From the NCBI GenBank assembly GCA_951406725.2, contig OX597819.1, positions 19,840,001 to 19,904,000 of the forward strand: a stretch of 64,000 nt of DNA, written 5' to 3'. Position numbers and translations under genes: made by a program. Source of the DNA: Octopus vulgaris. Taxonomy: Eukaryota. Below are positions 78 to 56,875 of the stretch, piece after piece. The notes beneath the pieces are model-generated. The model did no database searches and was not told the DNA's origin. It saw only the letters and a program-made list of their open reading frames with translations. How positions within the stretch are numbered: the first letter of the stretch is position 1; each line of letters opens with the position of its first letter.

Positions 78-650
78 GGCAGCGAGCTGGCAGAAACTTT
101 AGCACGCCGGGCAAAATGCTTAGTGGTATTTCGTCTGCCGCTACGTTCGGAGTTCAAATTCCGCCGAGCTCGACTTTGCCTTTCATTCTTTCGGGGTCGA
201 TTAAATAAGTACCAGTTAGTGGGGTCAATATAATCAACTTAATCCGTTTGTCTGTCCTTTTTTGTCATCTCTGTATTTAGCCCCTTGTGGGTAGTAAAGA
301 AATAGGTATTTCGTCTGCCGCTAGGTTCTGAGTTCAAATTCCACCGAGGTCGATTTTGCCTTTCATTCTTTCGGGATCGATTAAATAAGTACCAGTTACT
401 CACTGGGGCCGATATAATCGACTTAATCCGTTCGTCTGTCCTTGTTTGTCCTCTCTGTGTTTAGCCCCTTGTGGGTAGTAAAGAAATAGGATATATCTTC
501 TGCCGTTACGTTCTGAGTTCAAATTCCGCCGAGATCGACACTGCCTTTCATCGTTTCAGCGTCGATAAATTAAGTACCAGTTGCATACTGGGGTCGATTT
601 ATCGATTGACCCCCTCCCACCAAATTTCGAGCCTTGTGCCTAGAGTAGCA
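78..650 (+). mobile_element. tRNA-derived SINE (family B) with about three tandem ~180-bp internal units
   Basis: B-box-like GAGTTCAAATTCC and the core GCCTTTCATyCTTTCGGGGTCGAT..AAATAAGTACCAG recur at a ~180-bp period. The same family is seen elsewhere in the window. Confidence 0.8.
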
Positions 651-834
651 AAAATATTCATACACACAAATATACACAAACACAAACACGCACACATACA
701 CACACATACACACACACACACAGATTATTTTATTGGTTTCTTTTTTTACTTGTTTCAATCATTTCACCGCGGCCATGCCGAAGGGCTTCCTTGAAGGGTT
801 TGAGGTGAACAAATCGGCTCCAGGACATAATCGG

Positions 835-1004
835 TTTTTATTGTCGTCCTTTCTCTGGATCTTTCCTTCTCCAATGTTTCCGAGGAAGAGCTCCACTCGA
901 AACGTTAAACCCTCCTTCTTTCCTTCTTTCCTGAGTGCCCAATGATACTATATTTGTTCCACGTCCTCGCGTTGTTGAGTTTTTTTGTGCTTTCTTGTTT
1001 GGAT

Positions 1005-1008
<4 letters not shown>
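835..1008 (+). mobile_element. Penelope-like 3' terminal repeat fragment with degenerate hammerhead-like motif
   Basis: CCGAGGA-AGAG-CTCCA-CTC-GAAAC at 880-903. Ends in (TA)n. Homologous to 48716-48925 and 34350-34530. Confidence 0.6.
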
Positions 1009-1056
<48 letters not shown>

Positions 1057-1063
1057 TAATATT

Positions 1064-1110
<47 letters not shown>

Positions 1111-1213
1111 TATACATATATAATATTAATAATATATATATATATATATATATAGATATATATATATACATATATGCTTACTTATATATATATATGTAAA
1201 TATATATATATAA

Positions 1214-1249
<36 letters not shown>

Positions 1250-2099
1250 GTATATATCTATATACATATTCTGTTGTGTCTGGGGAGTGTTGTTTTGTTT
1301 TTGTACCTTATAATGTAACACACTCACAAGTAAAATTTGCACATTTTTTCTTATTTTTATTAAATTTTTGTTGCATCTTGCAACCTTTTCAAAAGTCTTG
1401 ACTATCAAAACACAACAGAATATGCTTCAACACACGAACTCATATAAAGAATCTTGCAAACCAAATGCAAAAACGATATATATATATATATATATATGAT
1501 TGCATAAAACCCCACACACTCACATACATAATCTCCGTACGCATACACACACACAATCACACACACACACACCCATACATATATATATATATATATATAT
1601 ATGCGTACAGATATTATGTATGTGAGTGTGTGGGTGTTTATGCAATTCATATATACAACGGTTAAAATTGTATGTGGACATTTTATTAGCATGTGATTTT
1701 TACCATTTATAGTCACTAGGTGATTTTTTCATTTATTATCAATAACAAGCTCTGCTGCGTCGTAGGAATTGTAGGGCTTCTTAACCGTTTTCCAATGCTT
1801 ATGAATGATGATATTCCTATGAACATGACACCAGGTCGTTGCTGGCTTCATTGTTAGCAAATTTCTGGTGAGGCAGCATTTCGATTACATGAAATCTGAG
1901 TACTTCGCTGGTACCTTATTTTAGCAATATCTTTGAATTCCTATGCAAAAGAGTCGGCCGAAGGAATGCTGCTACGTAATTCGTCCATATTGTTTACGAT
2001 TCTATCCACGGACTTATAAACATTATATCATTCGGAATACAGCATTTTAAAAACATATCTTTATAATAATTACTGTATCATTCAATTATATATATATAG

Positions 2100-2290
2100 G
2101 TAGAATTCACGAAAAAAACAAAATACGAAGACAGGTGGTGTAGAAAACAAACAGATGTATTAGTATAATGCTCGGGAATTGAAATAGTCGTTTACGTTTC
2201 GAGCCTACGCTCTTCCACAAAAAGGAACACAGAAAGAAAAAAGGAGAGAAAAAATGTGTGTAGTGGCTACCGATCTATCATGGCGACCAT
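2100..2290 (-). mobile_element. Penelope-like 3' terminal repeat, solo copy in (TA)n
   Basis: Closely similar to 16979-17170, which lies downstream of a GIY-YIG remnant. Contains GAAGAGCGTAGGCTCGAAACG on the minus strand. Confidence 0.7.
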
Positions 2291-3603
2291 ATATATATAT
2301 ATTATGTAGACAAATATAAACTGGGACAAGAACGTAAAATATTTAGAAGACGATATAAAAAACACGGACGGGACATTCAAAGCCTTCAATCTTCAGTCAA
2401 GAACCGGATCATCCTAGCAATTTCGGCTGATTAATCTTGAGATCGCTCCGATCCGGCCAGCCCCAAGGAAAAACTAAGCTACGAGCATTAGATTTTTTGG
2501 AAAAAGGATCGAATGTATACGAAACAAGAACAGAAAAACGGACGATGCCACACGAATATAAATACAAAAAACAATAATAGTAATAACAGGACAAAAACAG
2601 CGGGTGTCTTACGACTATAGACAGTACAACTTAGTTTAGCCGGCGTATTTGGAAAAAAATGTTTTTTACGGCAGACGAAGACAACGATATTCTCGTGGCG
2701 CTGGTAAGAAGCCGAAAGGCTGGTTGACCAGCGGTATATATATCTTTATATCGTTTATATCTGGTATTCTGTGACAGTGGTGGAAAAACATGGCCTATAC
2801 AACTAAAGTGTATATTCAATTTTTCCCGCCCGCACATAAGCAAAGACGCTCTCTCTCTCTCTCACTCACACACACGCGCACACATACACACACAGATATG
2901 TGTATATATATATATATATCAAAACTCATTTACTTCAGATGTCACTCGTAGGCATCTAACCCCTATCCATGTGTATGCAGAGAGAATCGAAACGGTCATT
3001 CTTTCGTTGAAATATATAAATATCATAAAAGCCGCAAATGTAAACTGACATATGAATACTTCAGTACGGCGTAAATCATATTTATGAAAAGATGTTTACG
3101 GAAATAAGTTAGAATAAATATATTTTCCTCTTTTTGTTTATATACGAGAAAGAGACGTTGAATGTCTTTTACCAAATCGCGATGTCTGACATTTTAAAAT
3201 GTCGGAATTACTCGGAAAGAAATATGCACACGTTAACATTTATTAAATATGCCTTCCATAAAATGCTTCAATGTAAAAAAAATCAGTATAATAAAAACTA
3301 ATAATAATATCACCGTGTTTTAGTAAATTACGGTTTCAAAATTTAAGCGAGATCATGGTAATGCGTTTTCATTTTATTTTCCTTTTTTCAGCTTTTGATG
3401 GACTTCAGAAAATTAAAATGTAAAATCAAATCGGGCAGCATGCGAGTAGTTAATTTACGTCAATAAATAATTTACTGTAAAATGATATGCTGGAAATAGA
3501 GGACAAATGTTCCTCACCATGCAGCCTCATATCCGAAAAAAGTGAAATGACACGCAACACATATGCCTATATATGTACACATACACACATATACTTCACA
3601 TGT

Positions 3604-3636
<33 letters not shown>

Positions 3637-3639
3637 TAT

Positions 3640-4033
3640 AGGTGCAGGAGTGGCTGTGTGGTAAGTTGCTTGCTAACCAACCACATGGTTCCGGGTTCAG
3701 TCCCACTGCGTGGCATCTTGGGCAAGTGTCTTCTGCTATAGCCCCGGCCCGACCAATGCCTTGTGAGTAGATTTCGTAGATGGAAACTGAAAGAAGCCTG
3801 TCGTGTATATGTATATATATGTGTGTTTGTGTTTGTCCCGCTAGCATTGCTTGACAACCGATGCTGGTCTGTTTATGTCCCCGTCACCTAGCGGTTCGGC
3901 AAAAGAGACCGATAGAATATGTACTGGGCTTACAAAAGAATAAGTCCCGGGGTCGATTTGCTCGACTAAAGGCGGTGCTCCAGCATGGCCGCAGTCAAAT
4001 GACTGAAACAAGTAAAAGAGTAAAGAGTAAAGA
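3640..4033 (+). mobile_element. tRNA-derived CORE-like SINE (family A), full length
   Basis: Head TGGCTGTGTGGT..GGGTTCAGTCCC, CORE-like CTTGGGCAAGTGTCTT, tail GGCGGTGCTCCAGCATGGCCGCAG and (AGAGTAA)n end. Many copies in the window. Confidence 0.8.
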
Positions 4034-4169
4034 GTATATATATATATAGATACGCATACAACAGGAATGCACTGTTTTGGCGTCAGAGCTTTTTTACACA
4101 AACCTATAGACATTCAAAAATACAAGCATATACATATTTAAGACCAGGTACATGTATAATTATATATGA

Positions 4170-5429: not shown

Positions 5430-7046
5430 TCAGGCCAAGTCGAAGACTCCACCCTCAGAGTCTGGTGTGGTTGCCAGGTTGTATTCTCTGTTTAATTTTG
5501 ACATGTGTAGGAGCGAGTTTGAGTCAGTTTGTGCTCGTTGTGTATATCCTGGGAGATGGGGTTCATCTCTAATGGTGCTTAAGTATCTATCCAGCTGCAA
5601 TTTGAATGATTCCACACTGCATCCTGATAGATTTCTGACATGTACCGGAATGGAGTTGAATAGTTGTGCTCCTCGAACCAACAGACTTGATTCTGGCAGG
5701 GTTTTTGCTGCCTGGCCAGCCTTTTTGTTGATTGGTGGTAGCTGGCAGCGTTTTCCGTGGCGCAGTGAGTGGTAGGTTTTGATACCAAAGTTTGGCACCT
5801 TTTGCTCTATCATTTTCCAAATGTATATAATTCGGTATCGCTCAAATCTTCTTTCTATTGAGTACATCCTCAAGGTTTTGAGTCTTTGCCAATAGTCCAG
5901 GTCCCTCGTTTCTGAGAAGTATGAGGTAAAATTTCTTTGGAGCGATTCCATCTTAGATAGTTGGCCCTTTGTTGTTGGTGACCACAATTGAGAACAGTAG
6001 TCAATCCTCGGAAGTATCATACTGTCCCAGAGGGTTTTCATTGCTGAGGTATCTCTTGATTTGAAGGTGCGCAAGATCCACCCGCTGTACTTTCTTGCAG
6101 TAAGACAGACTGAGTCAAGGTGTTCTCTGAATTTTAGGCTGGTTCCCATGTGGATGCCTAAATCTTTCACATACTGTTTTTCCATTATTTGTTGTCCTGA
6201 TGGGTTTCTGTAGTTTGTTGTATTTTTCAGATCTTGATCTGTTCCGTAGCAAATTAGTTCAAACTTCTTATCCTTGAACAACATGTTGTTTGTTTCCTGC
6301 CATTTATATATGGTGGTCAGGTCCTTTTGTAAGGCCTCTGTATCCACCTCGTCTTTGATTTGTCTCATGACCCTGGTGTCATCAGCAAAGGATGAGAGGT
6401 TGCTGGTTGTATCTTCATCTATGTCAGAGATGAGGATGAGAAACAGGATTGGGCCGAGTACTGTACCCTGAGGAACACTGCTGGTCACAGGTGATGGTGT
6501 TGAATGGGTTCCATTCACAGTGACTGTTTGAGTTCTATTTGTAAGGAACTCATGTATCCATGTACCAACTTTTCCTCCTACTCCTAGCTTTCGAAGTTTG
6601 TGACCCAGGATGCCATGATCTACCTTGTCAAATGCCTTGGCAAAGTCGAGGTAAATAACATCTGTGTTGTATCCATTCTCTAGATTTTCTAGGATTTGGT
6701 CATGGTGTGCCAGTAGTTGGGAAAGACATGATCTACCTAACCTGAATCCATGCTGGTTGCAATTCATCAGATTGTTGGATTCCAGGAACTCAACCAGTTT
6801 TCCACGAACTATTCTTTCGAAGACCTTGATAATGTGTGATGTCAGTGAGATTGGTCGGTAGTTCTTTGGTTTTGATTTGCTGTCCCCTTTATGTAGTGGA
6901 GTTATGTGTGCCTCTTTATATGTATTTGGGATTTTGCCATTCTCCATAGATTCCCTCCATATCATGTAAAGGAGTTTCAACAATTGTACCTTGCAGTTTT
7001 TAAGTATCATGGCATTGAAACCGTCAGGCCCCACAGCCGAGTGCAT
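5430..7046 (-). CDS. LINE ORF2 reverse transcriptase portion (open for 538 codons)
   Basis: Motifs GPDG, NYRPISLTS, QHGFR, YLDFAKAFDKVDH, VPQGTVLGPILF, FADDT, KDLGI, YCSQLWSP. Confidence 0.9.
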   Translation of the reverse strand: MHSAVGPDGFNAMILKNCKVQLLKLLYMIWRESMENGKIPNTYKEAHITPLHKGDSKSKPKNYRPISLTSHIIKVFERIVRGKLVEFLESNNLMNCNQHGFRLGRSCLSQLLAHHDQILENLENGYNTDVIYLDFAKAFDKVDHGILGHKLRKLGVGGKVGTWIHEFLTNRTQTVTVNGTHSTPSPVTSSVPQGTVLGPILFLILISDIDEDTTSNLSSFADDTRVMRQIKDEVDTEALQKDLTTIYKWQETNNMLFKDKKFELICYGTDQDLKNTTNYRNPSGQQIMEKQYVKDLGIHMGTSLKFREHLDSVCLTARKYSGWILRTFKSRDTSAMKTLWDSMILPRIDYCSQLWSPTTKGQLSKMESLQRNFTSYFSETRDLDYWQRLKTLRMYSIERRFERYRIIYIWKMIEQKVPNFGIKTYHSLRHGKRCQLPPINKKAGQAAKTLPESSLLVRGAQLFNSIPVHVRNLSGCSVESFKLQLDRYLSTIRDEPHLPGYTQRAQTDSNSLLHMSKLNREYNLATTPDSEGGVFDLA

Positions 7047-7069
7047 GGAGAGCTTGTCTATGGCTCTTT

Positions 7070-7785
7070 CTATGGGTTGAAATCAATGTCGGATAGGGTA
7101 GGTTTAGTATGGTCGATATCCTTGAAGAATTTTCCTGGGTCATGGATCTTCATGGTTTTAGATGGCTCACTGAAGACACTTTCATACTGTTGACCCAACA
7201 TTTCTGCCATTTCAATAGGGTTATTCATTACATCCCCATTTTGTCTCTGGAGAGGTTCTATTGTTGACTTGGTATTCGAGTATTTCTTTGCAAAACTGTA
7301 GAAACATTTTGGATTTTTCTTGATGTTTTCTATGGCTCTCTTTTCTGCATTGTTACGTTCTTCATCATAGTGTTGTTTTATATTGTCTTCTAATCTGTAT
7401 ATTTGGTCAAGGACTTTCTGTGATTCATGTTTTGATGTCAGCTTAGATGTTTTTTTTCTTAGTCTTGACCTTTTACGCATCAGGATCTTTCGCTCCCGTG
7501 GTACAGGTTTTTTTGTGGATTTGGTTTTCTTAAGAGGAATATTTTTTGCACATATTTCTTCGATCTTGTTTAAGAATTTCTTGTGTTTATCTGGCCCAGT
7601 AAGGTAGAGATCCCAGTCAATGATTTGTAACTGGTTGTTAATAGTTTCCCAATTTGCCTGGTGACAATCATACCTGCATAGCTTTGGCATGTCCTTTTGT
7701 TTAAGAGTTGTGGCATTGGGCTCATTACCAATGTGTAAATGCATTTCAATAATATTGTGGTCTGAAAGGATTGTTATTATTTGGT
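7070..7785 (-). pseudogene. LINE ORF2 upstream portion (end of endonuclease plus linker), frameshifted relative to the RT ORF
   Basis: Contains LSDHNII, ANWETI and KKNPKCFYSF, typical of the CR1/L2-type linker. Confidence 0.8.
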
Positions 7786-8075
7786 TTATTTCAAGATTTC
7801 TTTCCAAAAGAGATAGAAACGGTTTCTAACCTAGATTCACGATTATTTCATTTGAATTTCAACTTCAACAACAAGGTATCTTTTGTATGTATGTATTTAT
7901 GTATGTATATGCAGATTTGTATGTTTTATGTATGTATACTCATGTATATAGTTATATATCATGGCATGCTCATATATATTTAAAGGATAAACTTCTAGAA
8001 ACTTTTAGAGATTTTTACAGTTCCAGTGATGGATTGGATCTGTAGTCTTCCAATTTGCTTTCTCCTTTCTTTGAG
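7786..8075 (-). mobile_element. Second 3'-end fragment of the REL-type element
   Basis: Colinear similarity with 4690-5000 (GGTTTCTAACCTAGAT, GAATTTCAAC, CTCATATATA). Confidence 0.65.
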
Positions 8076-11279: not shown

Positions 11280-11321
<42 letters not shown>

Positions 11322-11600
11322 CAACAATTGAGGGTAAAATTAATTAATTAATTATTAATCAATATCACCAAGTGTTCAGTATGTAAAGGGACCGTTTAAG
11401 GCGAATTCAAATTATTACATTATATAAAAGGGCTTAGTAAAATAAATTACTTTGCCACATACTGAACTCATTAGAAATAGTAGCTAAAAAAACTTTTTTT
11501 AAAACTATTTCTAATACTTAAAGAAAATCTCTCTCATATAGTGCTTGCTCAATTCAACTCACGAAAGTATGGGGGTAAAGACATTAAAAAATCAAATGCA

Positions 11601-11671
11601 AAGGTTATTTGAGAACGTACGTTTCAAGATTAGTCAAACTCGACATTTCTATCATCAGCTCAGAACTCCTT
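11601..11671 (-). ncRNA. Type I hammerhead ribozyme (R1 unit 1)
   Basis: Minus strand reads TGAG-CTGATGA-(stem II AGA..GTC/GAC..TCT)-GAAAC-GTAC-GTT-CTCA. Stem I is TGAG/CTCA plus AAGG/CCTT. Confidence 0.7.
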
Positions 11672-12165
11672 GGTTTGGATTTCAAAACACTGTAAGTGGG
11701 AGCATACCCTTTCGGCTTCTAATCGCTTCTGAAGATCTGCTCGAAACTAACAGTGCCAGCAAACCCAAAATATGCAAGCGAAGAATTTCTGCTCTCCCCT
11801 TTCCACCAGCGTGGGTTAAAATCAGCAAACACTATGTTTTTTCGGTAAATCCGAAAACATTAAATAGAGAGAGATGAATTATAATTTCAACAATTGAGGG
11901 TAAAATTAATTAATTAATTATTAATCAATATCACCAAGTGTTCAGTATGTAAAGGGACCGTTTAAGGCGAATTCAAATTATTACATTATATAAAAGGGCT
12001 TAGTAAAATAAATTACTTTGCCACATACTGAACTCATTAGAAATAGTAGCTAAAAAAACTTTTTTAAAACTATTTCTAATACTTAAAGAAAATCTCTCTC
12101 ATATAGTGCTTGCTCAATTCAACTCACAAAAGTATGGTGGTAAAGACATTAAAAAATCAAATGCA

Positions 12166-12236
12166 AAGGTTATTTGAGAACGTACGTTTCAAGATTAGTC
12201 AAACTCGACATTTCTATCATCAGCTCAGAACTCCTT
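12166..12236 (-). ncRNA. Type I hammerhead ribozyme (R1 unit 2)
   Basis: Same sequence as 11601-11671. Confidence 0.7.
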
Positions 12237-13049
12237 GGTTTGGATTTGAAAACACTGAAAGTGGGAGCATACCCTTTCGGCTTCTAATCGCTTCTGAAGA
12301 TCTGCTCGAAACTAACAGTGCCAGCAAACCCAAAATATGCAAGCGAAGGATTTCTGCTCTCCCTTTCCACCAGCGTGGGTTAAAATCAGCAAACACTATG
12401 TTTTTTCGGTAAATCCGAAAACATTAAATAGAGAGAGATGAATTATAATTTCAACAATTGAGGGAAAAATTAATTAATTAATTATTAATCAATATCACCA
12501 AGTGTTCAGTATGTAAAGGGACTAATCTTGAAATGTACGTTTTCAAATATCCTTTGCATTTGATTTTTTAATGTCTTTACCCCCATACTTTCGTGAGTTG
12601 AATTGAGCAAGCACTATATGAGAGAGATTTTCTTTAAGTATTAGAAATAGTTTTAAAAAAAGTTTTTTTAGCTACTATTTCTAATGAGTTCAGTATGTGG
12701 CAAAGTAATTTATTTTACTAAGCCCTTTTATATAATGTAATAATTTGAATTCGCCTTAAACGGTCCCTTTACATACTGAACACTTGGTGATATTGATTAA
12801 TAATTAATTAATTAATTTTACCCTCAATTGTTGAAATTATAATTCATCTCTCTCTATTTAATGTTTTCGGATTTACCGAAAAAACATAGTGTTTGCTGAT
12901 TTTAACCCACGCTGGTGGAAAGGGGAGAGCAGAAATCCTTCGCTTGCATATTTTGGGTTTGCTGGCACTGTTAGTTTCGAGCAGATCTTCAGAAGCGATT
13001 AGAAGCCGAAAGGGTATGCTCCCACTTTCAGTGTTTTCAAATCCAAACC

Positions 13050-13120
13050 AAGGAGTTCTGAGCTGATGATAGAAATGTCGAGTTTGACTAATCTTGAAAC
13101 GTACGTTCTCAAATAACCTT
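13050..13120 (+). ncRNA. Type I hammerhead ribozyme (R1 inverted unit)
   Basis: CTGATGA at 13063-13069, GAAAC-GTAC-GTT at 13096-13107. Confidence 0.7.
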
Positions 13121-13291
13121 TGCATTTGATTTTTTAATGTCTTTACCCCCATACTTTCGTGAGTTGAATTGAGCAAGATTTGAATTGAGAGAGATTTTCT
13201 TTAAGTATTAGAAATAGTTTTAAAAAAAGTTTTTTTAGCTACTATTTCTAATGAGTTCAGTATGTGGCAAAGTAATTTATTTTACTAAGCC

Positions 13292-13295
<4 letters not shown>

Positions 13296-13369
<74 letters not shown>

Positions 13370-14078: not shown

Positions 14079-16233
14079 TTACGTAGATATGCAAATATAC
14101 ATACACATATGTGATTGCGCGTCTATGCATGTGTGAATATATATATATATATATATATATGTATATTTACGATTATATGAAATTAATACATCGATGTAAT
14201 TATATATACACAGAATATTATACCTTTGTGTAATATCAATAGAACTACTAAATAAATTACCCCAGTTCTTCCTAAGTTAATCTAATAAAACACTTTCTAA
14301 AACGTCCGTATATTTATTCCGAAAGCCTCCTTTGCCAAGTAACTATTCTTGACAAATCGGTACGAATTTGCTGAGAAGGCAATTTTTGCATCAAAATTAA
14401 GCTCCTTTATTATAACGTGTTATGTACTGAATTGCAGACAGGACGAAATTACCCCATTGAGACTTCCCTTAATCAAATGTTGCTAAGGAGCGTGTGAAAC
14501 CGTAAATCGTGTAGGAGTTTATTAAACGCTCCTCTATATTTTCGACCAAACATCGGTTTTTCTCCTTTCTCCTTTTCACATTATTTACGTTCATATGAAA
14601 TTAGTAGATAATATTGCTTCCTTAGCAGAGTAAATTTTCTAAAGAATTACGCACTGTGTTGATATTCTTGGAACATACTACTTGTTTTGGTTTAATTAAA
14701 TCTTCACGGAACGAGAAAGCAATTTCCGACATTGTAATGAATTCCCCGCACGGAAATGTCGTGAACCTGTTGTGCCACAGGGGAGTTCTGTCGTAAGTCA
14801 GAGTTTTAACTGACTATCGCTGTTTAGTTGATTCCATTTAACATAATTTTATGCCTTTTTGCGTTATTAGTTCCGACTCAGCCCATTTTTTTTTCTCTGG
14901 AGATATTCAGATTTGTCGAGAATTACGTTTGAACTTGTTTTTAGTTACAGGATCTCACGGTTTTCGTCTATTTCTAGTGGTAAATCGTATCAGACATCAA
15001 AGAATATAATTGGGTAAATAACATGAAACGAATCTAGGTGTAAGTAAACATTTAAGCAAAAAAACAAAACAAAACAGTTACTCTTTATCTCTCTCACTTT
15101 CTCTCTCTCTCACTTACTAATTCTCTCTCACTTTCTCTCTCTCACTCACTCGCTCCCTGTCTCTCTCTCTCCCCCCCTCCCTCACTCATTAATTCACTCA
15201 CTCACGCACTCTCTCTATCATTTCACGCTTATATTTATCACTGTCTCGTTTCCTGTTCGCAGTAAAAGTATTTAACTATAAGTAAAAGAAAAGAATAACA
15301 GAATATATGTGTGCATATGTGTAAAAGTAATTTTGTGTACGTGTTTCTGTGTGTCTGGCTGTTTGTGTGTGTGTGTATCTGTGTTTTTGACGAAAACTGT
15401 TTAGATTTATTCACAAAAAATAGCGCATATTTATGAGTTTATTTATGTATATTATATTTTTAAATATTTCTTTATGTAAACAACGAAATCAAATATGCTT
15501 TTATAAAGACCAACAATTGTATTATATATCTACGTTTACTCTATAACATGAAGTAAATATTGGTCTGAAATGCTTTCGAATATCAAAGTGTACACCAAAA
15601 TCAACAATGAAAATTATATACATTTTTTTTTTCTCAGTTCTTTTGAAGACATTTTTTTCCTCTCTCGGTGATCCATTACATATGATAAAACCGTAATAGC
15701 AACGACTGAACTGAAGAGAAATTCGACTAGATATACAATATCAATTATAGAAACGTTGTTATAATAGACACAAAGACACACACACACACATACAAACACA
15801 CATAAACACACACTTACACACACATACACACACATAAATAGCTACATAAATATTCTGTCGACGTTATATAGGTTAAAATTGCAGACATCGTTATTCATGG
15901 AGTGATGTTTTCTAAACAATACAGCGCCTGTAAAAAAAAATCTATCTGGGTCTTTACTGTCCTTATAGGAATGAGAGTTAAAATACTTGAAATCTGAGCC
16001 CTATACCCAGTAGTTTCAATCTCCGTAAATTATACATCTTTAACAGAAATTGAAACTGTATGAAATTCGACACATATGCAGACACAGACAAGAAGACAAA
16101 CACAGAGGTACAGACACACGGACACACGGACACTCGGACACTAAAAAACATACGCAACCGTCCCACACACACACTCAAACACGTATTCATCTTGGTCTTG
16201 TGTGTATATATTCATGTATATGTATCTTTCTCT

Positions 16234-16926
16234 AATTGTCCCAAAATAATCTGTATTTTTGTTATTTTTTATTTGCCCTGTTCGTGTGAGCTAACAATCG
16301 TACTGACTTTCATGGGAAACATATATTTTTGTGGTTGAAACCTTTTGGATTAACTAGTGCTAGAGTGAGCCATATAGTGACCACTCTCTTATATTTATTT
16401 TGTAAAAATATTATAATATATTATAAAATATTATAATAATCCAGGTTTCTCGGAGCACTGGGCCACTTGGTGTTGAATGGATATACTATTAAATTAGTAT
16501 CTAATTCTCTCACCCTTATTAATTAATTATAAGTATGCTACATTTATTTCTTAATGTAGTATTTGTTTTCCGTGAGAGTTTGGCGCGCTGTTAGTAGGGG
16601 CATTTGAATTATAACGTCGGATGTAATCAATTGAACCACACGTGTATTTATCGTTATGGTAAAATCTGGCGTGTGATTGAGTGGATTTCATCCAGATAGT
16701 TTTGGCTGAGGAGCTACAAGTGGATTTTTTTGTAAGTAAAATTACATTTAATTCATTAATAGCGAAACAATTGTCCCAAAATAATCTGTATTTTTGTTAT
16801 TTTTTATTTGCCCTGTTCGTGTGAGCTAACAATCGTACTGACTTTCATGGGAAACATATATTTTTGTGGTTGAAACCTTTTGGATTAACTAGTGCTAGAG
16901 TGAGCCATATAGTGACCACTCTCTTA

Positions 16927-16933
<7 letters not shown>
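16234..16933 (+). mobile_element. Hammerhead-bearing element (retrozyme-like family R3): 535-bp monomer plus ~165-bp direct repeat, ending in (TA)n
   Basis: 16234-16398 is repeated, apparently exactly, at 16769-16933. The hammerhead spans the unit junction. Confidence 0.85.
16693..16788 (+). ncRNA. Canonical type I hammerhead ribozyme, predicted cleavage after C16775
   Basis: CAGATAGTTTTGG-CTGAGGA-GCTA..TAGC-GAAAC-AATT-GTC-CCAAAATAATCTG. Intact core, 13-position stem I with one mismatch, long stem II, palindromic minimal stem III. Confidence 0.9.
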
Positions 16934-16978
<45 letters not shown>

Positions 16979-16982
<4 letters not shown>

Positions 16983-18145
16983 GAATTCACAAAAAACAAA
17001 AGAAAGAGACAGTTGGTGTAGACAACAAGCATATGTATTAGTATAACGCTCGGGAATTGAAAAAGTCTTTAACGTTTCGAGCCTACGCTCAGCCATAGAA
17101 AAGAACAGAAAGAAACAAGGAGAGGAAATAACGAATGTGTATTGGATAGCGATCTATCATGGCGAATGCCGGACAGCGGGTCACACAGGAGAGCTAAGAA
17201 GAAGGGAAAATAATAAAGTAGTGGTGATCCCAAAAGGAAGGTGCACATGCGTGTGTATAAGAGAGTATGTATGTGCGTGTGGAAGAGGGCTGGTGACCTT
17301 GACGTGTGCGTGTGTGCATGTATAGGCGTGTGGATGATGGTATGGGGCTAGGAAGTGGCCAGTGCTAGTGTGTGCTTGTTGGTGTGATGTGATCTCAAGT
17401 TGTGTTTGGTGGTGTCTAGTGTGGTTTGGTGGTGTTCAGATGTTGTGGAAGCGAGAATGGGGAAAGCAAGATTGGGTGTGGATTAGGCTGAGGTTGGAGG
17501 TATAGGTGGGGTATGTGGGAATATGAGTAAGGGATAGGGTGGGGTTGGAATGGGAAGGATAGGAAAGGTGAGGTTGGATTGTGTAGGGGTCGTGTTACGA
17601 GGGAGGGGTGACGATGAAGTGAGAATGGAAGGGAGAAGTTGGGTTGGAGAGAAGAAAGGAGAGTAGTAATGAAGAGAAGTAGGAGTCGGTGCAAGAGAGG
17701 AGAGGTGCGTGGGAGGAAGTAGTGGTGAGAGGTAGAGAGGAGAGTAGAGGAGGGTTAGATGAAGAGGGGTGCAGAGTTGAGCCCATGTGGCGCAAAGGAG
17801 AGAAGAGAGAAGATTAATCTCTCTTCACAGCGGAGCGAGGAGGCCGGATGGACCATGTGCAAGGACAATCCAAACACAGACAGTGCTTGCAAAAAATTAC
17901 CGTTAGAGCGGAAATGGCGCGAGACTGAGTTGTAATTGCCGAGTCATATGTCTCGGAGGTGTTCCACGAACTGGTCAATCAAGCAGCGTCCCGTTTGCCA
18001 GATGTATAGGGAAGGGCAGAAAGAGCAGGAGATACACTAGGTAACACTGATAGAAGTGAAAAGTGAAGGAGTCGTTGATATGACAGCGTCGATGTTGGAT
18101 GCCGGTGAGGAGGTGGTGTTGGTGAGGTATGGGCAAGTGCGGCTG
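16979..18145 (-). mobile_element. 5'-truncated degraded Penelope-like element (GIY-YIG remnant, C/T-rich spacer, 3' repeat)
   Basis: Minus strand at ~17850-18145 translates with lesions to RTCPYL...CISCSFCPSLYIWQTGRCLIDQFVEHLRDI...VSRHF. The 3' end abuts (TA)n. Confidence 0.75.
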
Positions 18146-19424: not shown

Positions 19425-19870
19425 CGCTGCGGCCATGCTGTGGTACCACCGTTGAATGAGCTACACTAGTATTTGAAATCACCTCTGATGTGTGGCACCT
19501 AGTGAACAAGGGAGTTTAACGCCGCTGCCCGCATCTGTGTTTCCTGCCGAGAGGTAGGTTCATCTGGAACCCCTGACAAGAAGTGATCCAGTTTAGTTTT
19601 AAAGAAACCCACATCCACACCATGCAGGTCTCTAAGGCACTTAGGAAAGACATTGAAGAGCTGTGGTCCCCTGAAAACCAAGCTGTTACTTATCTGGTCC
19701 TGTATTTTGATGGTTATGTTGGGATATTTGGCACCATACAGTGGCGTTCTGCTCTTGGGATAATTTTCAATGCCAAAATTCGGACAAGACCCACCTGGAT
19801 TTTCCAGATGTATATCAATGTATATACAAAGTCTATCCCAGGTAGCTGATATGTTGCATTGAGACGGTCT
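19425..19870 (-). mobile_element. CR1-group LINE 3' fragment
   Basis: ORF 19499-19978 contains NSLVFRGPQLFN..FKTKLDHFLSGVPDEP..NSL, homologous to the C-terminus of the 5430-7046 ORF. Confidence 0.8.
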
Positions 19871-19880
19871 TCTTGGTGTG

Positions 19881-19930
<50 letters not shown>

Positions 19931-20017
19931 CGTTACAGTTGAAAAGGTCTCAAAATATACCGGTACTGAAATGTTCACTATAAAATTATTTTAGCATTTT
20001 CTATTTTTTAGTTGTTT

Positions 20018-21198: not shown

Positions 21199-21344
21199 TA
21201 TTTACTTTATTATTAAAGCTACCAAAATATCAGAAGATACTGTTAGTTCCGACGAACGGGAACGTGAAACTCTGAGTAGCAGCTTATTGTGATATTTTGT
21301 GATGTTTTTGCAGCTTTAATTATAAAACACATTACCCTACCTCT

Positions 21345-21625
21345 GCTGTTCGTGATAGGCCCACAGCTCTCAATATCCTCCCGAAGAACCTAAGATACCT
21401 GCATGGGGTGGATGCAGATGTCTTTAAAATGAAACTGGATCTCTTCTTGTCAGGTGTCCCAGATAAACCAACTTCACGGCAGGAGGTGCAGATGAGGGCA
21501 GTTGTATCGAACTCTCTCATGCACCAGATGGCAATTGCTAAAAAAGCATTCGTGAAGGAAAATCATGTAGCAACACCAAATGGCGGTGCCCCAGCATGGC
21601 CACAGCTTGTGACCTGAAACTAAAT
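21345..21625 (+). mobile_element. CR1-group LINE 3' fragment with tail
   Basis: GPQLLNILPK..FKMKLDLFLSGVPDKP..SNSL, then GGCGGTGCCCCAGCATGGCCACAG. Confidence 0.8.
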
Positions 21626-37335: not shown

Positions 37336-37404
<69 letters not shown>

Positions 37405-37617
37405 AGTAACAGAAAAAGGAATTTCGATTGTCCCCACGTGGTGTGTTGTAATGTATATAAGAAATTAAAAAGGAAAATACGTACACTTACATGGTTTTAA
37501 TATCATTTTTAATCTATCGACCAGTTGCGCTATCGCTATTCATGATATTATGTTTAATTTATTTGAATATATACTTTTGCTTAAGACGAAATTTGGTCCA
37601 TGTTGTGAGTGATGAAA

Positions 37618-37690
37618 TTCACAAGTGAATGACTTCACAAGTGAATGACTTCACAAGTGAATGACTTCACAAGTGAATGACTTCACAAGT
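37618..37690. repeat. 16-bp tandem repeat TTCACAAGTGAATGAC, about 4.5 copies
   Basis: Perfect copies. Lies in the presumed 3' UTR of the adjacent Penelope element. Confidence 0.95.
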
Positions 37691-37887
37691 ACACAAATAA
37701 AGAGAGGTAATTGGTTGTTATTATTGTTATTGTTGTATGTAAGGGAGATAACTGTTCAGTTTTCGGTAATGGGTGAGGATTAAATATGTGTACAGAAAAA
37801 AGACAGGTTTAAAAAAACCTTGTTTATTAGGGGATTTATGTACAGTGATGTAATCGTGAATGGAGTATGTAAAAATATAATAGTTGG

Positions 37888-38580
37888 TTATACGTGCATA
37901 TTAAGACGTGTTTTGTATTTTTCAATGAAAAAAGTTTCTTTATTTAAACGTTCTAGTTGGAAGATTGCGTCTTTGCACTGGTAGAATGGGAAGACTGTGA
38001 AATTCGGTTTGATGTTACGTGCACATTTTTCTATGTGTTCACTGAGAGCAATTTGTCTGTATTGCGGGAAACGGATTTGCTCCTTATGCAGAGTAATTCT
38101 CTTCCTCAAAGTTAAACTCGTTTGTCCAATGTACTGGTGACCGCAACCCGAGCAGGTTATTACATAAATTAAGTTCTCAGAGGCACAGGTGAAACTAGTT
38201 TTAATTGTGAACCTCTGTCCTTGTTTGAAAAGGAAATCCGAGCCTTCAAGCAGGTTGGTGCAGGTTCCACAGTTCGGGCGTCCACATTTTTCAACCGTTG
38301 GTTTCGTGGTTGTTTTGCAAAGCTTCGCATTTGTTAGTAGTCTCTTTAGCGATTTGTCCTGTTTTTTTTTGCATTTCATGAGTTTGTGTGTTTGCAGGAT
38401 GTTCATTTTTGGATCTCTAGTTAGTAAAGGGAGAATTTGAACAATAGTGTTGAATGCCTCACTGCTTGTGGGGTTGTGTGTTGATATAAAATGTAATGTT
38501 TTAGTTTGAGGTGTGGTGCTATGTTTTTTTGTTCTTAGTGTTTTTGTGTCTAATTGTTTGGCACGTTTAATTCCCTCGTA
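37888..38580 (-). CDS. Penelope-like element C-terminal fragment: Cys-rich linker plus GIY-YIG endonuclease (5'-truncated, open frame)
   Basis: KCGRPNCGTC, NLIYVITCSGCGHQYIGQT, LRKRITLH, RLNKETFFI..LN. The part of the ORF upstream of 38580 is microsatellite. Confidence 0.9.
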   Translation of the reverse strand, partial: YEGIKRAKQLDTKTLRTKKHSTTPQTKTLHFISTHNPTSSEAFNTIVQILPLLTRDPKMNILQTHKLMKCKKKQDKSLKRLLTNAKLCKTTTKPTVEKCGRPNCGTCTNLLEGSDFLFKQGQRFTIKTSFTCASENLIYVITCSGCGHQYIGQTSLTLRKRITLHKEQIRFPQYRQIALSEHIEKCARNIKPNFTVFPFYQCKDAIFQLERLNKETFFIEKYKTRLNMHV

Positions 38581-45827: not shown

Positions 45828-46380
45828 CGGGTGAGTCAAAAAGTAATGCCATTTTGTTTAGGACAGGTATAATCACCAACACGGAAACATGTATCATGCA
45901 TCAAAATGTAATTGGTTTTCTGTGGATCACATCCTTACTTCTCAACATATTCTTCGTTACTCTCAATAGCAATGTCCCTCCTTCGAATGAGAGCATGTAT
46001 CCCTGCCCTGTAAAATTCTGTTGACTGTTCTCTGAGACACCTCTTCACTACCTCCGCACTCACCAGATTTAGAGCCTTCAGACTATCATCTTTTCGGCCC
46101 CATGAAAGAGAGTTTGGAAGGCAAAAATTATTCCAGTGACGAGGAAGTGAAAACTGTAGTGAAGAAGTGGCTCAAAGAACAGTCAACAGAATTTTACAAG
46201 GCAGGGACACATGCTCTCATTCGAAGGCAGAATTTGCTACATAGAGAAACGGTGACTATGTTGAGACGTAGGGATGTGATCCACAGAGGGCCAGCTTCAT
46301 TTCGATGTATGATACATGTTCCTGTGTTGGTAATTATACCTGTCCTGAACAAAATGTCATTACATTTTGACTCACCCTCG
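45828..46380. mobile_element. Non-autonomous fold-back mariner derivative with TA target-site duplication
   Basis: TA-CGGGTGAGTCAAAA...TTTTGACTCACCCTCG-TA. Arms of ~230 bp are inverted copies. Centre encodes SPDLEPSDYHLFGPMKESL..DEEVK, the mariner transposase C-terminus. Confidence 0.88.
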
Positions 46381-46394
46381 TATATTTTTTCTAT

Positions 46395-46595
46395 ACTAGT
46401 CACAAGTTCTGAAATTTTGTAGGGAAGGGGCCAGTCGATTAGATCAACCCAGTACGCAACTGGTACTTTATTTTTCGAACTGGAGAGGATGAAAAGCAAA
46501 GTCGACCTCGGTGGAATTTGAACTCAGAACGTGAAGACTAACGAAATACCGCCAAGAATTTCACTCGGCGTGCTACGTTTCTGCCAGTTCACAGC
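46395..46595 (-). mobile_element. SINE family B monomer
   Basis: GCAAAGTCGACCTCGGTGGAATTTGAACTCAGAACG, the reverse of the 78-230 type. Confidence 0.75.
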
Positions 46596-48715: not shown

Positions 48716-48925
48716 TGTGACCGCGTGCGCATCGTTGGCGATTTTTTCGCCCTTCTTTCCTTCCTCGGATCTTTTTTTTTTCCTATGTTTCTGACGAAGA
48801 GTTCCGCTCGAAACGTTAAGTCCTTCCTCTTTCTTTCCTTTCCCGAGCGTTCAATAATACTGTACTTGTTCCACGTCCTCGCGTTGTTTTGTTTTCTCTT
48901 TGTGTTTTCATGTTTCGATTAACTG
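48716..48925 (+). mobile_element. Penelope-like 3' repeat with hammerhead-like core
   Basis: CTGACGA-AGAG-TTCCG-CTC-GAAAC-GTTAA-GTC at 48791-48822. Confidence 0.65.
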
Positions 48926-55915: not shown

Positions 55916-55972
<57 letters not shown>

Positions 55973-55979
<7 letters not shown>

Positions 55980-56875
55980 GGCTTAGTAAAATAAATTACT
56001 TTGCCGCATACTGAACTCATTAGAAATAGCAGCTAAAAAAACTTTTTAAAACTATCTCCAATACTTAAAGAAAATCTCTCTCGTATAGTGTTTGCTCAAT
56101 TCAACTCACGAAAGTATGAGGGTAGAGACATTAAAAAATCAAATGCAAAGGTTATTTGAGAACGTACGTTTTAAGATTAGTCAAAATCGACACTTCTATC
56201 ATCAGCTCAGAACTCCCTGGTTTGGATTTGAAAACACTGAAAGCGGGAGCATACCCTTTCGGCCTGTTATCGCTTCTGAAGATCTGCTCAAAACTAACAG
56301 TGTTAGCAAATTCAAATATGCAAACGAAGAATTTCTGCTCTCCCCTTTCCACCAGCGTGGGTTAAAATCAGCAAACATTTTTTCGGTAAAATCCGAGGCA
56401 TTATATAGAGAGAGATGAATTATAATTTCAACAATTGAGGGTAAAATTAATTAATTAATCAATTTCACCAAGTATTCAGTATACAAAGGGACCATTTAAG
56501 GCGAATTCAAATTATTACATTATATAAAAGGGCTTAGTAAAATAAATTACTTTGCCGCATACTGAACTCATTAGAAATAGCAGCTAAAAAAACTTTTTTA
56601 AAACTATCTCCAATACTTAAAGAAAATCTCTCTCGTATAGTGTTTGCTCAATTCAACTAACGAAAGTATGAGGGTAGAGACATTAAAAAATCAAATGCAA
56701 AGGTTATTTGAGAACGTACATTTTGAATTTGCTAACACTGTTAGTTTTGAACAGATCTTCAGAAGCGATAACAGGCCGAAAGGGTATGCTCCCGCTTTCA
56801 GTGTTTTCAAATCCAAACCAGGGAGTTCTGAGCTGATGATAGAAGTGTCGATTTTGACTAATCTTGAAACGTACG
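55973..56875. mobile_element. Second R1 locus: about 1.35 units (551-bp period) plus ~155-bp inverted segment
   Basis: Starts at (TA)n-AAAGGGCTTAG. The hammerhead at 56148-56218 (minus) has GAAAC changed to AAAAC. The inverted piece 56720-56875 ends at GAAACGTACG. Confidence 0.85.

Follow-up and report, generated by a model that had tools for sequence, protein, structure and literature searches.

A 535-nt tandem repeat with a long-armed type I hammerhead motif in Octopus vulgaris, a probable Penelope-derived non-LTR retrozyme

At positions 16234..16933 (+) of the window, by which we mean the whole 64,000-nt stretch of Octopus vulgaris DNA that was analyzed, lies an insertion without an ORF that forms a partial tandem of 1.3 units with a period of 535. 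It is made up of a 5'-truncated first copy (16234..16398, +), which is identical to 16769-16933 (165/165 at period 535), as an earlier note on this DNA had said of the direct repeats, followed by one full 535-nt unit (16399..16933, +) bounded by the 3' end of the element. The 5' edge of the insertion is the first base of loop III of a hammerhead motif, 7 nt before its cut site, and the first 20 nt (16234..16253, +) are a ribozyme half comprising loop III, the GUC triplet (C16240) and the 3' strand of stem I. The 3' edge, 158 nt past the cut site, enters a (TA)n microsatellite (16925..16978) that overlaps the element's AU-rich end, and no TSD was visible at 16234-16933. The predicted cut-to-cut monomer (16241..16775, +) is 535 nt long with 32% GC and has a 17-bp rod (16305-16321/16564-16580), and an AU-rich hairpin with an alternative 3' end (16531) is situated at 16515..16533 (+). 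In the looped unit the longest ATG ORFs were of 19 aa (+) and 46 aa (-), and a six-frame reading revealed no coding remnant in the 535-nt unit. There was also no ORF within or next to the insertion, such as an autonomous Penelope-like element has for its telomerase-like RT and GIY-YIG endonuclease between pLTRs; its partial tandem structure and microsatellite target at 16234-16933 are standard for such elements. A repeat of a few hundred bases, arranged head-to-tail and carrying a type I hammerhead, is what characterizes non-LTR retrozymes, and that is what we found. Li et al. additionally look for two consecutive complete ribozymes, where this locus has only one whole and one half; their two-motif criterion concerns the activity of a copy rather than class membership.

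The complete motif, a type I hammerhead at 16693..16788 (+) with a predicted cut after C16775, was said in the earlier note to lie at the unit junction, and it does lie at the start of the second repeat, but the head-to-tail join as defined by the 3' end of the element is at 16398/16399. All parts of the core that had been claimed are present, with CUGAGGA (C3-A9) at 16706..16712 (+), GAAAC at 16764-16768 (+) and GUC at 16773-16775, the last two separated by the loop AAUU (16769-16772); the segment 16764..16775 (+) runs from G12-C15.2 through the palindromic stem III/loop (16767-16774) to G16.2-C17. This is the type I arrangement of CUGAnGA, GAAA and NUH around three helices with helix I open. 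The three stems are located where they had been placed. According to the pair tables stem I is paired at 12/13 positions, with A16698.A16783 mismatched and one G-U. The long stem II (16713..16763, +) covers 51 nt and consists of three helices (4, 8 and 5 bp; pair probabilities 0.97-1.0), the second of these being one pair longer than previously listed, and after the 4-bp helix there is a 2x2 internal loop in place of the canonical terminal loop 2. Stem III is just A-U and C-G, 2 bp closing AAUU, and it sits inside the perfect 8-nt palindrome 16767-16774, which as a self-duplex is predicted to form 8 bp at -6.4 kcal/mol. The fold of the 96-mer (-24.4 kcal/mol, z -3.8) was equalled by 0/200 shuffles. 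A relaxed type I descriptor identified 3 cores in the window, all three with a palindromic stem III, and in 40 block-shuffled windows the same descriptor yielded 0.125 cores per window, none with a palindromic stem III. Rfam had no hammerhead match at gathering score in the window and none at E<=10 in 16100-17000, which is likely caused, for the motif at 16693..16788, by the long stem II; 11 weak Rfam matches at E<=10 were attributed to chance, mostly on (TA)n. Judged by its sequence, 16693..16788 is a real hammerhead motif and a member of a class already described, with predicted self-cleavage.

The term textbook-intact, which had been applied to the motif, is justified for the core but not for helix III, or in respect of Rfam recognition. 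In the monomer, stems I and II pair at p 0.97-1.0, stem III at about 0.01, and the MFE structure mispairs the core, leaving the active fold 2.7 kcal/mol above it. When two copies were cofolded, the MFE structure was a strand-swapped double hammerhead with an 8-bp stem III (-54.6 kcal/mol vs 2 x -24.4, or -48.8). The palindromic stem III had been put forward as a route to dimers, and the cofold bears this out, as does the dimer behaviour described for animal type I hammerheads with a palindromic minimal stem III (PMC4209133, PMC7229834); on such models, the motif at 16693..16788 is expected to act as a dimer. Absent from the earlier reading was that the locus comprises one whole ribozyme plus a 20-nt half, and that a cut in cis may follow C16240 too. 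The 5'-edge half together with 16693-16772 is predicted to form a strand-swapped hammerhead with a 6-bp stem III that would cut after C16240. Folds of the nascent RNA gave p 0.69-0.99 for the swapped stem I and p 0.04-0.46 for the swapped 6-bp stem III; in the full-length locus transcript the local stem I prevails (0.95), and each of the two active folds lies some 3 kcal/mol higher than the minimum.

Extensive pairing was also predicted for the unit as a whole. Folded as a circle, the cut-to-cut monomer reached -146.6 kcal/mol (z about -6), which makes it highly self-paired, and its opposite strand -102.5 (z -5.0), with 11 background segments at z -2.9 to +1.9 (rough values, from 8-14 shuffles each). 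The body of the unit without the ribozyme had a z of -6.2, and 0/40 shuffles were as good. When the 28 variant sites of the family were placed on the majority background, 13 kept a pair, 6 broke one (10.4 expected) and 9 were unpaired. There was one two-sided difference, A16540-U16557 in the window and G-C when the majority allele is taken at each site. The ten changes between the window copy and the majority cost 0.8 kcal/mol together, nearly neutral for folding and matched by 1/60 and 5/80 random sets. Taken as predictions from folding models, these results argue moderately for selection acting on an RNA fold of the 535-nt unit.

All or part of the stretch was present in 20 sequencing runs from 11 studies, 7 of them with at least half of its words, and the evidence on the family comes from contig alignments of 4/20 runs (4 organism labels, 3 studies). 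In 4/4 runs 30/30 bins were covered, with 320 to 4080 contigs per run and summed depths of 10^3-10^6; these depths, which are not a copy number, point to a very abundant family. A head-to-tail joint, 16924 -> 16391, was found in contigs of 2/4 runs. No ORF-like arm was among the 24 loose ends listed (181 further ends lie beyond these, so that an ORF-bearing parent is conceivable). In 13 of the contigs with listed ends, from runs X3 (6) and X4 (7), the unit gives way to (TA)n at 16531, a second 3' end at a distance of 291 nt from the cut; others of the listed ends mark diverged subfamilies, and in one of these the core follows a stem I strand of different sequence. A contig of run X3 has the joint 16924 -> 16696, suggestive of a shorter tandem unit, about 245 nt long, in which the ribozyme is kept. 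An intron ending at CAG 16693-16695, as in D. virilis, was considered and rejected, as that joint is no clean splice. Another X3 contig has the joint 16709 -> 16776, with the stem II region different or missing, and a dip in depth at 16768-16785 was seen in run X1 only.

A core that is not conserved across copies had been named as a result that should count against the motif. Among the 28 substitution sites there was none in the 19 nt of core and stem III, where about 1 was expected (no core variant reached 3% in 4 runs), a difference that is not statistically significant; neither is that for the entire ribozyme (4 variants vs 5 expected). Three of the four ribozyme variants keep their pair, including 16720 and 16724 in stem II, and the fourth, at 16788 with a share of 1-6% depending on the run, disrupts the last pair of stem I; there was no two-sided change in the ribozyme. 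The variation across copies is consistent with function, with a conservation that is not significant.

Relative to the majority sequence of the family, the window copy has 8 differing sites in the 370-nt non-repeated part and 2 more that are common to both repeats. If the 8 were post-insertion changes, the repeats should differ from each other at about 7 sites, yet they differ at 0 (p about 0.0008), which supports an insertion at 16234-16933 that is young relative to the spread of the family. The identity of the repeats, from which a recent insertion had been deduced, by itself bounds the divergence only to <1.8%. Gene conversion or assembly polishing could be an alternative source of the zero differences.

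A second retrozyme-like family in the window, with a 565-nt unit, is present as tandem and inverted pieces at 11314-13301 and 55970-56875, and its hammerhead cores at 11658(-), 12223(-), 13063(+) and 56833(+) have an 8-nt palindromic stem III. Its outer ends lie in (TA)n at +192 (twice) and +299, and the circle has a z of -7.5. The 11314 locus carries two complete consecutive motifs; in the natural dimer the palindromes are predicted to pair at p 0.97-1.0, with the core mispaired. Across both families, the ends that are not in (TA)n are located, relative to the cut, at -7, -344, -22, -7 (to -11 with microhomology), -158 and -2. Four of these six (16234, 12520, 56720 and 56875) are 2-22 nt 5' of the predicted cut, a count with n=6 and an interval chosen post hoc, and in two of the six, one per family, the piece opens with the first base of loop III. 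A third family is represented by minimal Penelope-type hammerhead motifs at 48791(+) and 34489(-). There is also a core at 15711(+), possibly decayed.

The window further contains a 5'-truncated Penelope-like copy (37395-38580, -) whose frame at 37891-38580(-) encodes a C-terminal GIY-YIG domain whose CxxxxCxxC linker makes it Neptune-like, and longer relatives of this frame are annotated with RT domains. The copy has a 3' UTR of about 490 nt ending in (TA)n and a 16-nt tandem repeat at 37618-37690; no canonical hammerhead was found in 37395-38580(-). A link between it and the 535-nt unit was discarded, since the two have just a single 28-nt match (E 0.036), which no core surrounds. Compared by eye, the unit showed no likeness to two octopus Naiad 3' ends, and in these comparisons no sequence link to an autonomous partner element was found. 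Searches of viral contigs gave 0 matches to the ribozyme pattern and 0 relatives of the Neptune-like protein. In a pattern scan of metagenome contigs the sole match, L001, was bacterial, overlapped a kinase-like ORF, had no matching stems and was dismissed as chance.

Among the known systems, the metazoan non-LTR retrozymes of coral, mussel and axolotl, as presented by Cervera and de la Pena (2020, PMC7229834), are alike in being protein-free tandem repeats with a type I hammerhead and GC <50%, and in the weak palindromic helix III (a 2-bp stem plus tetraloop, as in HHR_Amex2) and the self-paired predicted circle. Their units are of 150-450 nt, whereas the unit here is of 535 nt, a length included in the range of 51-972 given by Li et al. 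2026, and they have a 4-bp stem II with a short loop in place of the 51-nt stem II. The insertion at 16234-16933 differs from them also in being a 1.3-unit copy with a (TA)n end and no visible TSD, and is described here as DNA. With the pLTR hammerheads of Penelope-like elements (Cervera and de la Pena 2014, PMC4209133; Craig et al. 2021, PMC8557442) the motif shares the type I topology, a palindromic 15.2-16.2 plus loop 3 and the G10.1-C11.1 pair, and the element shares the partial tandem, the (TA)n target and a ribozyme near the 3' end. A long stem II is also found among them, in PLE-X1_sMoe and PLE-X1_sTam, so that what had been called an unusually long stem II is indeed 51 nt long but has listed precedents, and the ribozyme is an ordinary member of a described class. 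It differs from the pLTR hammerheads in lacking a linked RT/endonuclease ORF and a bulged base between A9 and 10.1, in its long, 12-bp stem I, and in a stem II far beyond the 7-8 bp of minimal motifs. The non-autonomous PLE-derived retrozymes of Li, Clavereau and Pollet (2026, 10.64898/2026.07.22.740005), described from 35 species (31 vertebrates, 3 insects and 1 coral), resemble our element in their proposed pLTR origin, mobilisation by PLE enzymes and occurrence as monomers, dimers and multimers; at 16234-16933, by comparison, there is one complete motif, and a pLTR origin is suggested by analogy. PAc, a Poseidon element of Anolis (Frangieh et al. 2024, PMC11167929), likewise has two alternative 3' ends downstream of the ribozyme and an AT-rich target, but it is autonomous, with an ORF that begins in stem II, where the 535-nt unit has none; its two starts bound a tail of 30-40 nt vs 133 nt here, and PAc starts at a site without homology to its target, unlike the 535-nt family, in which the ends are TA-like.

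We consider it probable, though well short of certain, that the 535-nt repeat is a non-autonomous, Penelope-derived non-LTR retrozyme, protein-free and present in high copy. This reading is based on the motif and its chance control, the dimer MFE, the period of 535, the absence of an ORF, the abundance, the head-to-tail joints, the z of the circular fold and the lean of the variants to pair-keeping, and on the presence in the window of a 565-nt family of the same build and of a Neptune-like GIY-YIG remnant ending in (TA)n. In such a cycle, transcription would read through tandem copies and produce multimers, in which the 2-bp stem III would be too weak alone and two ribozymes would exchange strands so that their 8-nt palindromes pair with each other, or, at 16234-16933, the 5'-edge half would pair with the whole ribozyme. 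Two cuts would free the 535-nt monomer (16241-16775), which a host RtcB-type ligase could circularise. An autonomous Penelope-like element, of Neptune or Hydra type, would supply the RT and GIY-YIG enzyme, which would then nick (TA)n and begin copying internally, from an AU-rich hairpin of the RNA that lies 158 or 291 nt beyond the cut site. Copying would continue for more than one round and would here have stopped 7 nt after the second passage of the cut site, which we propose gave rise to the partial tandem with identical repeats. We infer all of these steps from the retrozyme class as described, the class, its life cycle and its Penelope origin being set out in PMC7229834, PMC4209133, 10.64898/2026.07.22.740005 and PMC8557442, with further mechanistic detail drawn from PMC7761336, PMC11167929 and PMC6765202. 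Doubt as to the retrozyme reading stems from the single whole ribozyme at the locus, a core invariance that is not significant, active folds about 3 kcal/mol above the minimum and the lack of a linked partner. It stems also from the reports that 8/9 Xenopus dimers tested by Li et al. were without cleavage (10.64898/2026.07.22.740005) and that Anolis PAc inserts in vitro with no need of ribozyme cleavage and has no RNA reads ending at the cut (PMC11167929).

Alternatively, the unit could belong to an autonomous Penelope-like element as its pLTR/3' UTR, and the locus could be two 5'-truncated copies of a linear read-through RNA, in which case the ribozyme would only trim a precursor and no circle would form. 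Partial tandems, inverted pieces and (TA)n targets are standard for Hydra and other endonuclease-bearing PLEs, as is a distance of about 100-200 nt between the ribozyme and the 3' end; the window holds a truncated Neptune-like copy with a 490-nt 3' UTR; and an internal RT start on linear RNA was shown for PAc (PMC11167929). Random truncation would not, however, give a head-to-tail join at about the same place in other genomes, the unit is devoid of coding remnants and the whole of it folds as a closed, self-paired body, and for these reasons we regard the pLTR alternative as rather unlikely, though it deserves to be taken seriously. A fossil family, that is a former retrozyme that has lost its catalytic activity and spreads through amplification at the DNA level or by being copied passively, appears less probable still. 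It would accord with a core conservation not above background, with the mispaired core of the monomer and with the inactivity of most Xenopus dimers assayed (10.64898/2026.07.22.740005), but the core is intact in the window and free of variants at or above 3% in 4 runs, the variants lean to pair-keeping, and identical repeats point to a young retro-insertion. That the motif arose by chance in AT-rich repeat DNA we hold to be extremely improbable: Rfam gives it no score and a similar short pattern matched an unrelated bacterial contig, yet the exact core is flanked by a stem II of 17 bp and a stem I of 12 bp, there were 0 palindromic matches in the 40 shuffled windows, and the edge of the repeat coincides with the palindrome.

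Beyond the retrozyme reading itself, we speculate that the genome might harbour at least two abundant families of viroid-like retrozyme circles, of 535 and 565 nt, on which the RT would cross the re-ligated junction and stall at the ribozyme, so that the ribozyme would set the insertion ends in vivo. This idea, which we rate as rather unlikely, is prompted by the pile-up of insert ends just 5' of the cut (4/6 within 22 nt, with loop III starts in both families). If it is true, a stalled RT leaves behind exactly the half that makes a 1.3-unit copy self-cleaving in cis, and there would be genomic evidence for insertion boundaries set by a ribozyme in vivo, contrary to the in vitro result for PAc. 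Given that ends cluster at the cut site, counting insertion ends in a single genome would be a way to test the in vivo role of the PLE hammerhead.

Craig et al. (PMC8557442) list a hammerhead in the octopus element Hydra-1_Obim. Their search, as outlined there, relied on bare core motifs whose spacer was 7-17 nt, longer cases being treated separately as half cores, and long-armed motifs like 16693..16788 can therefore be overlooked; two short ribozyme motifs had no match in the available portion of their supplement, where line breaks could hide one. In the accessible literature on hammerheads in octopus, molluscs and cephalopods we found no report of a cephalopod retrozyme, and the available text of the 2026 Octopus vulgaris repeat annotation has 0 mentions of ribozyme. 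Our results point to retrozyme families in a lineage for which no report was found, which is of modest but real value. Motifs with a stem II of roughly 50 nt are missed by standard tools (Rfam and short-spacer descriptors), and for that reason the ribozyme-negative calls in some Penelope-like clades merit a re-scan.

Other features of the window include a LINE at 5430-7825(-), in which a 550-aa RT frame (Pfam RVT_1, E 3.7e-30) has another frame next to it upstream; shorter pieces related to this LINE are near 19499-19990 and 21303-21617. The frame at 46036-46422(+) resembles the C-terminus of a mariner-type transposase.
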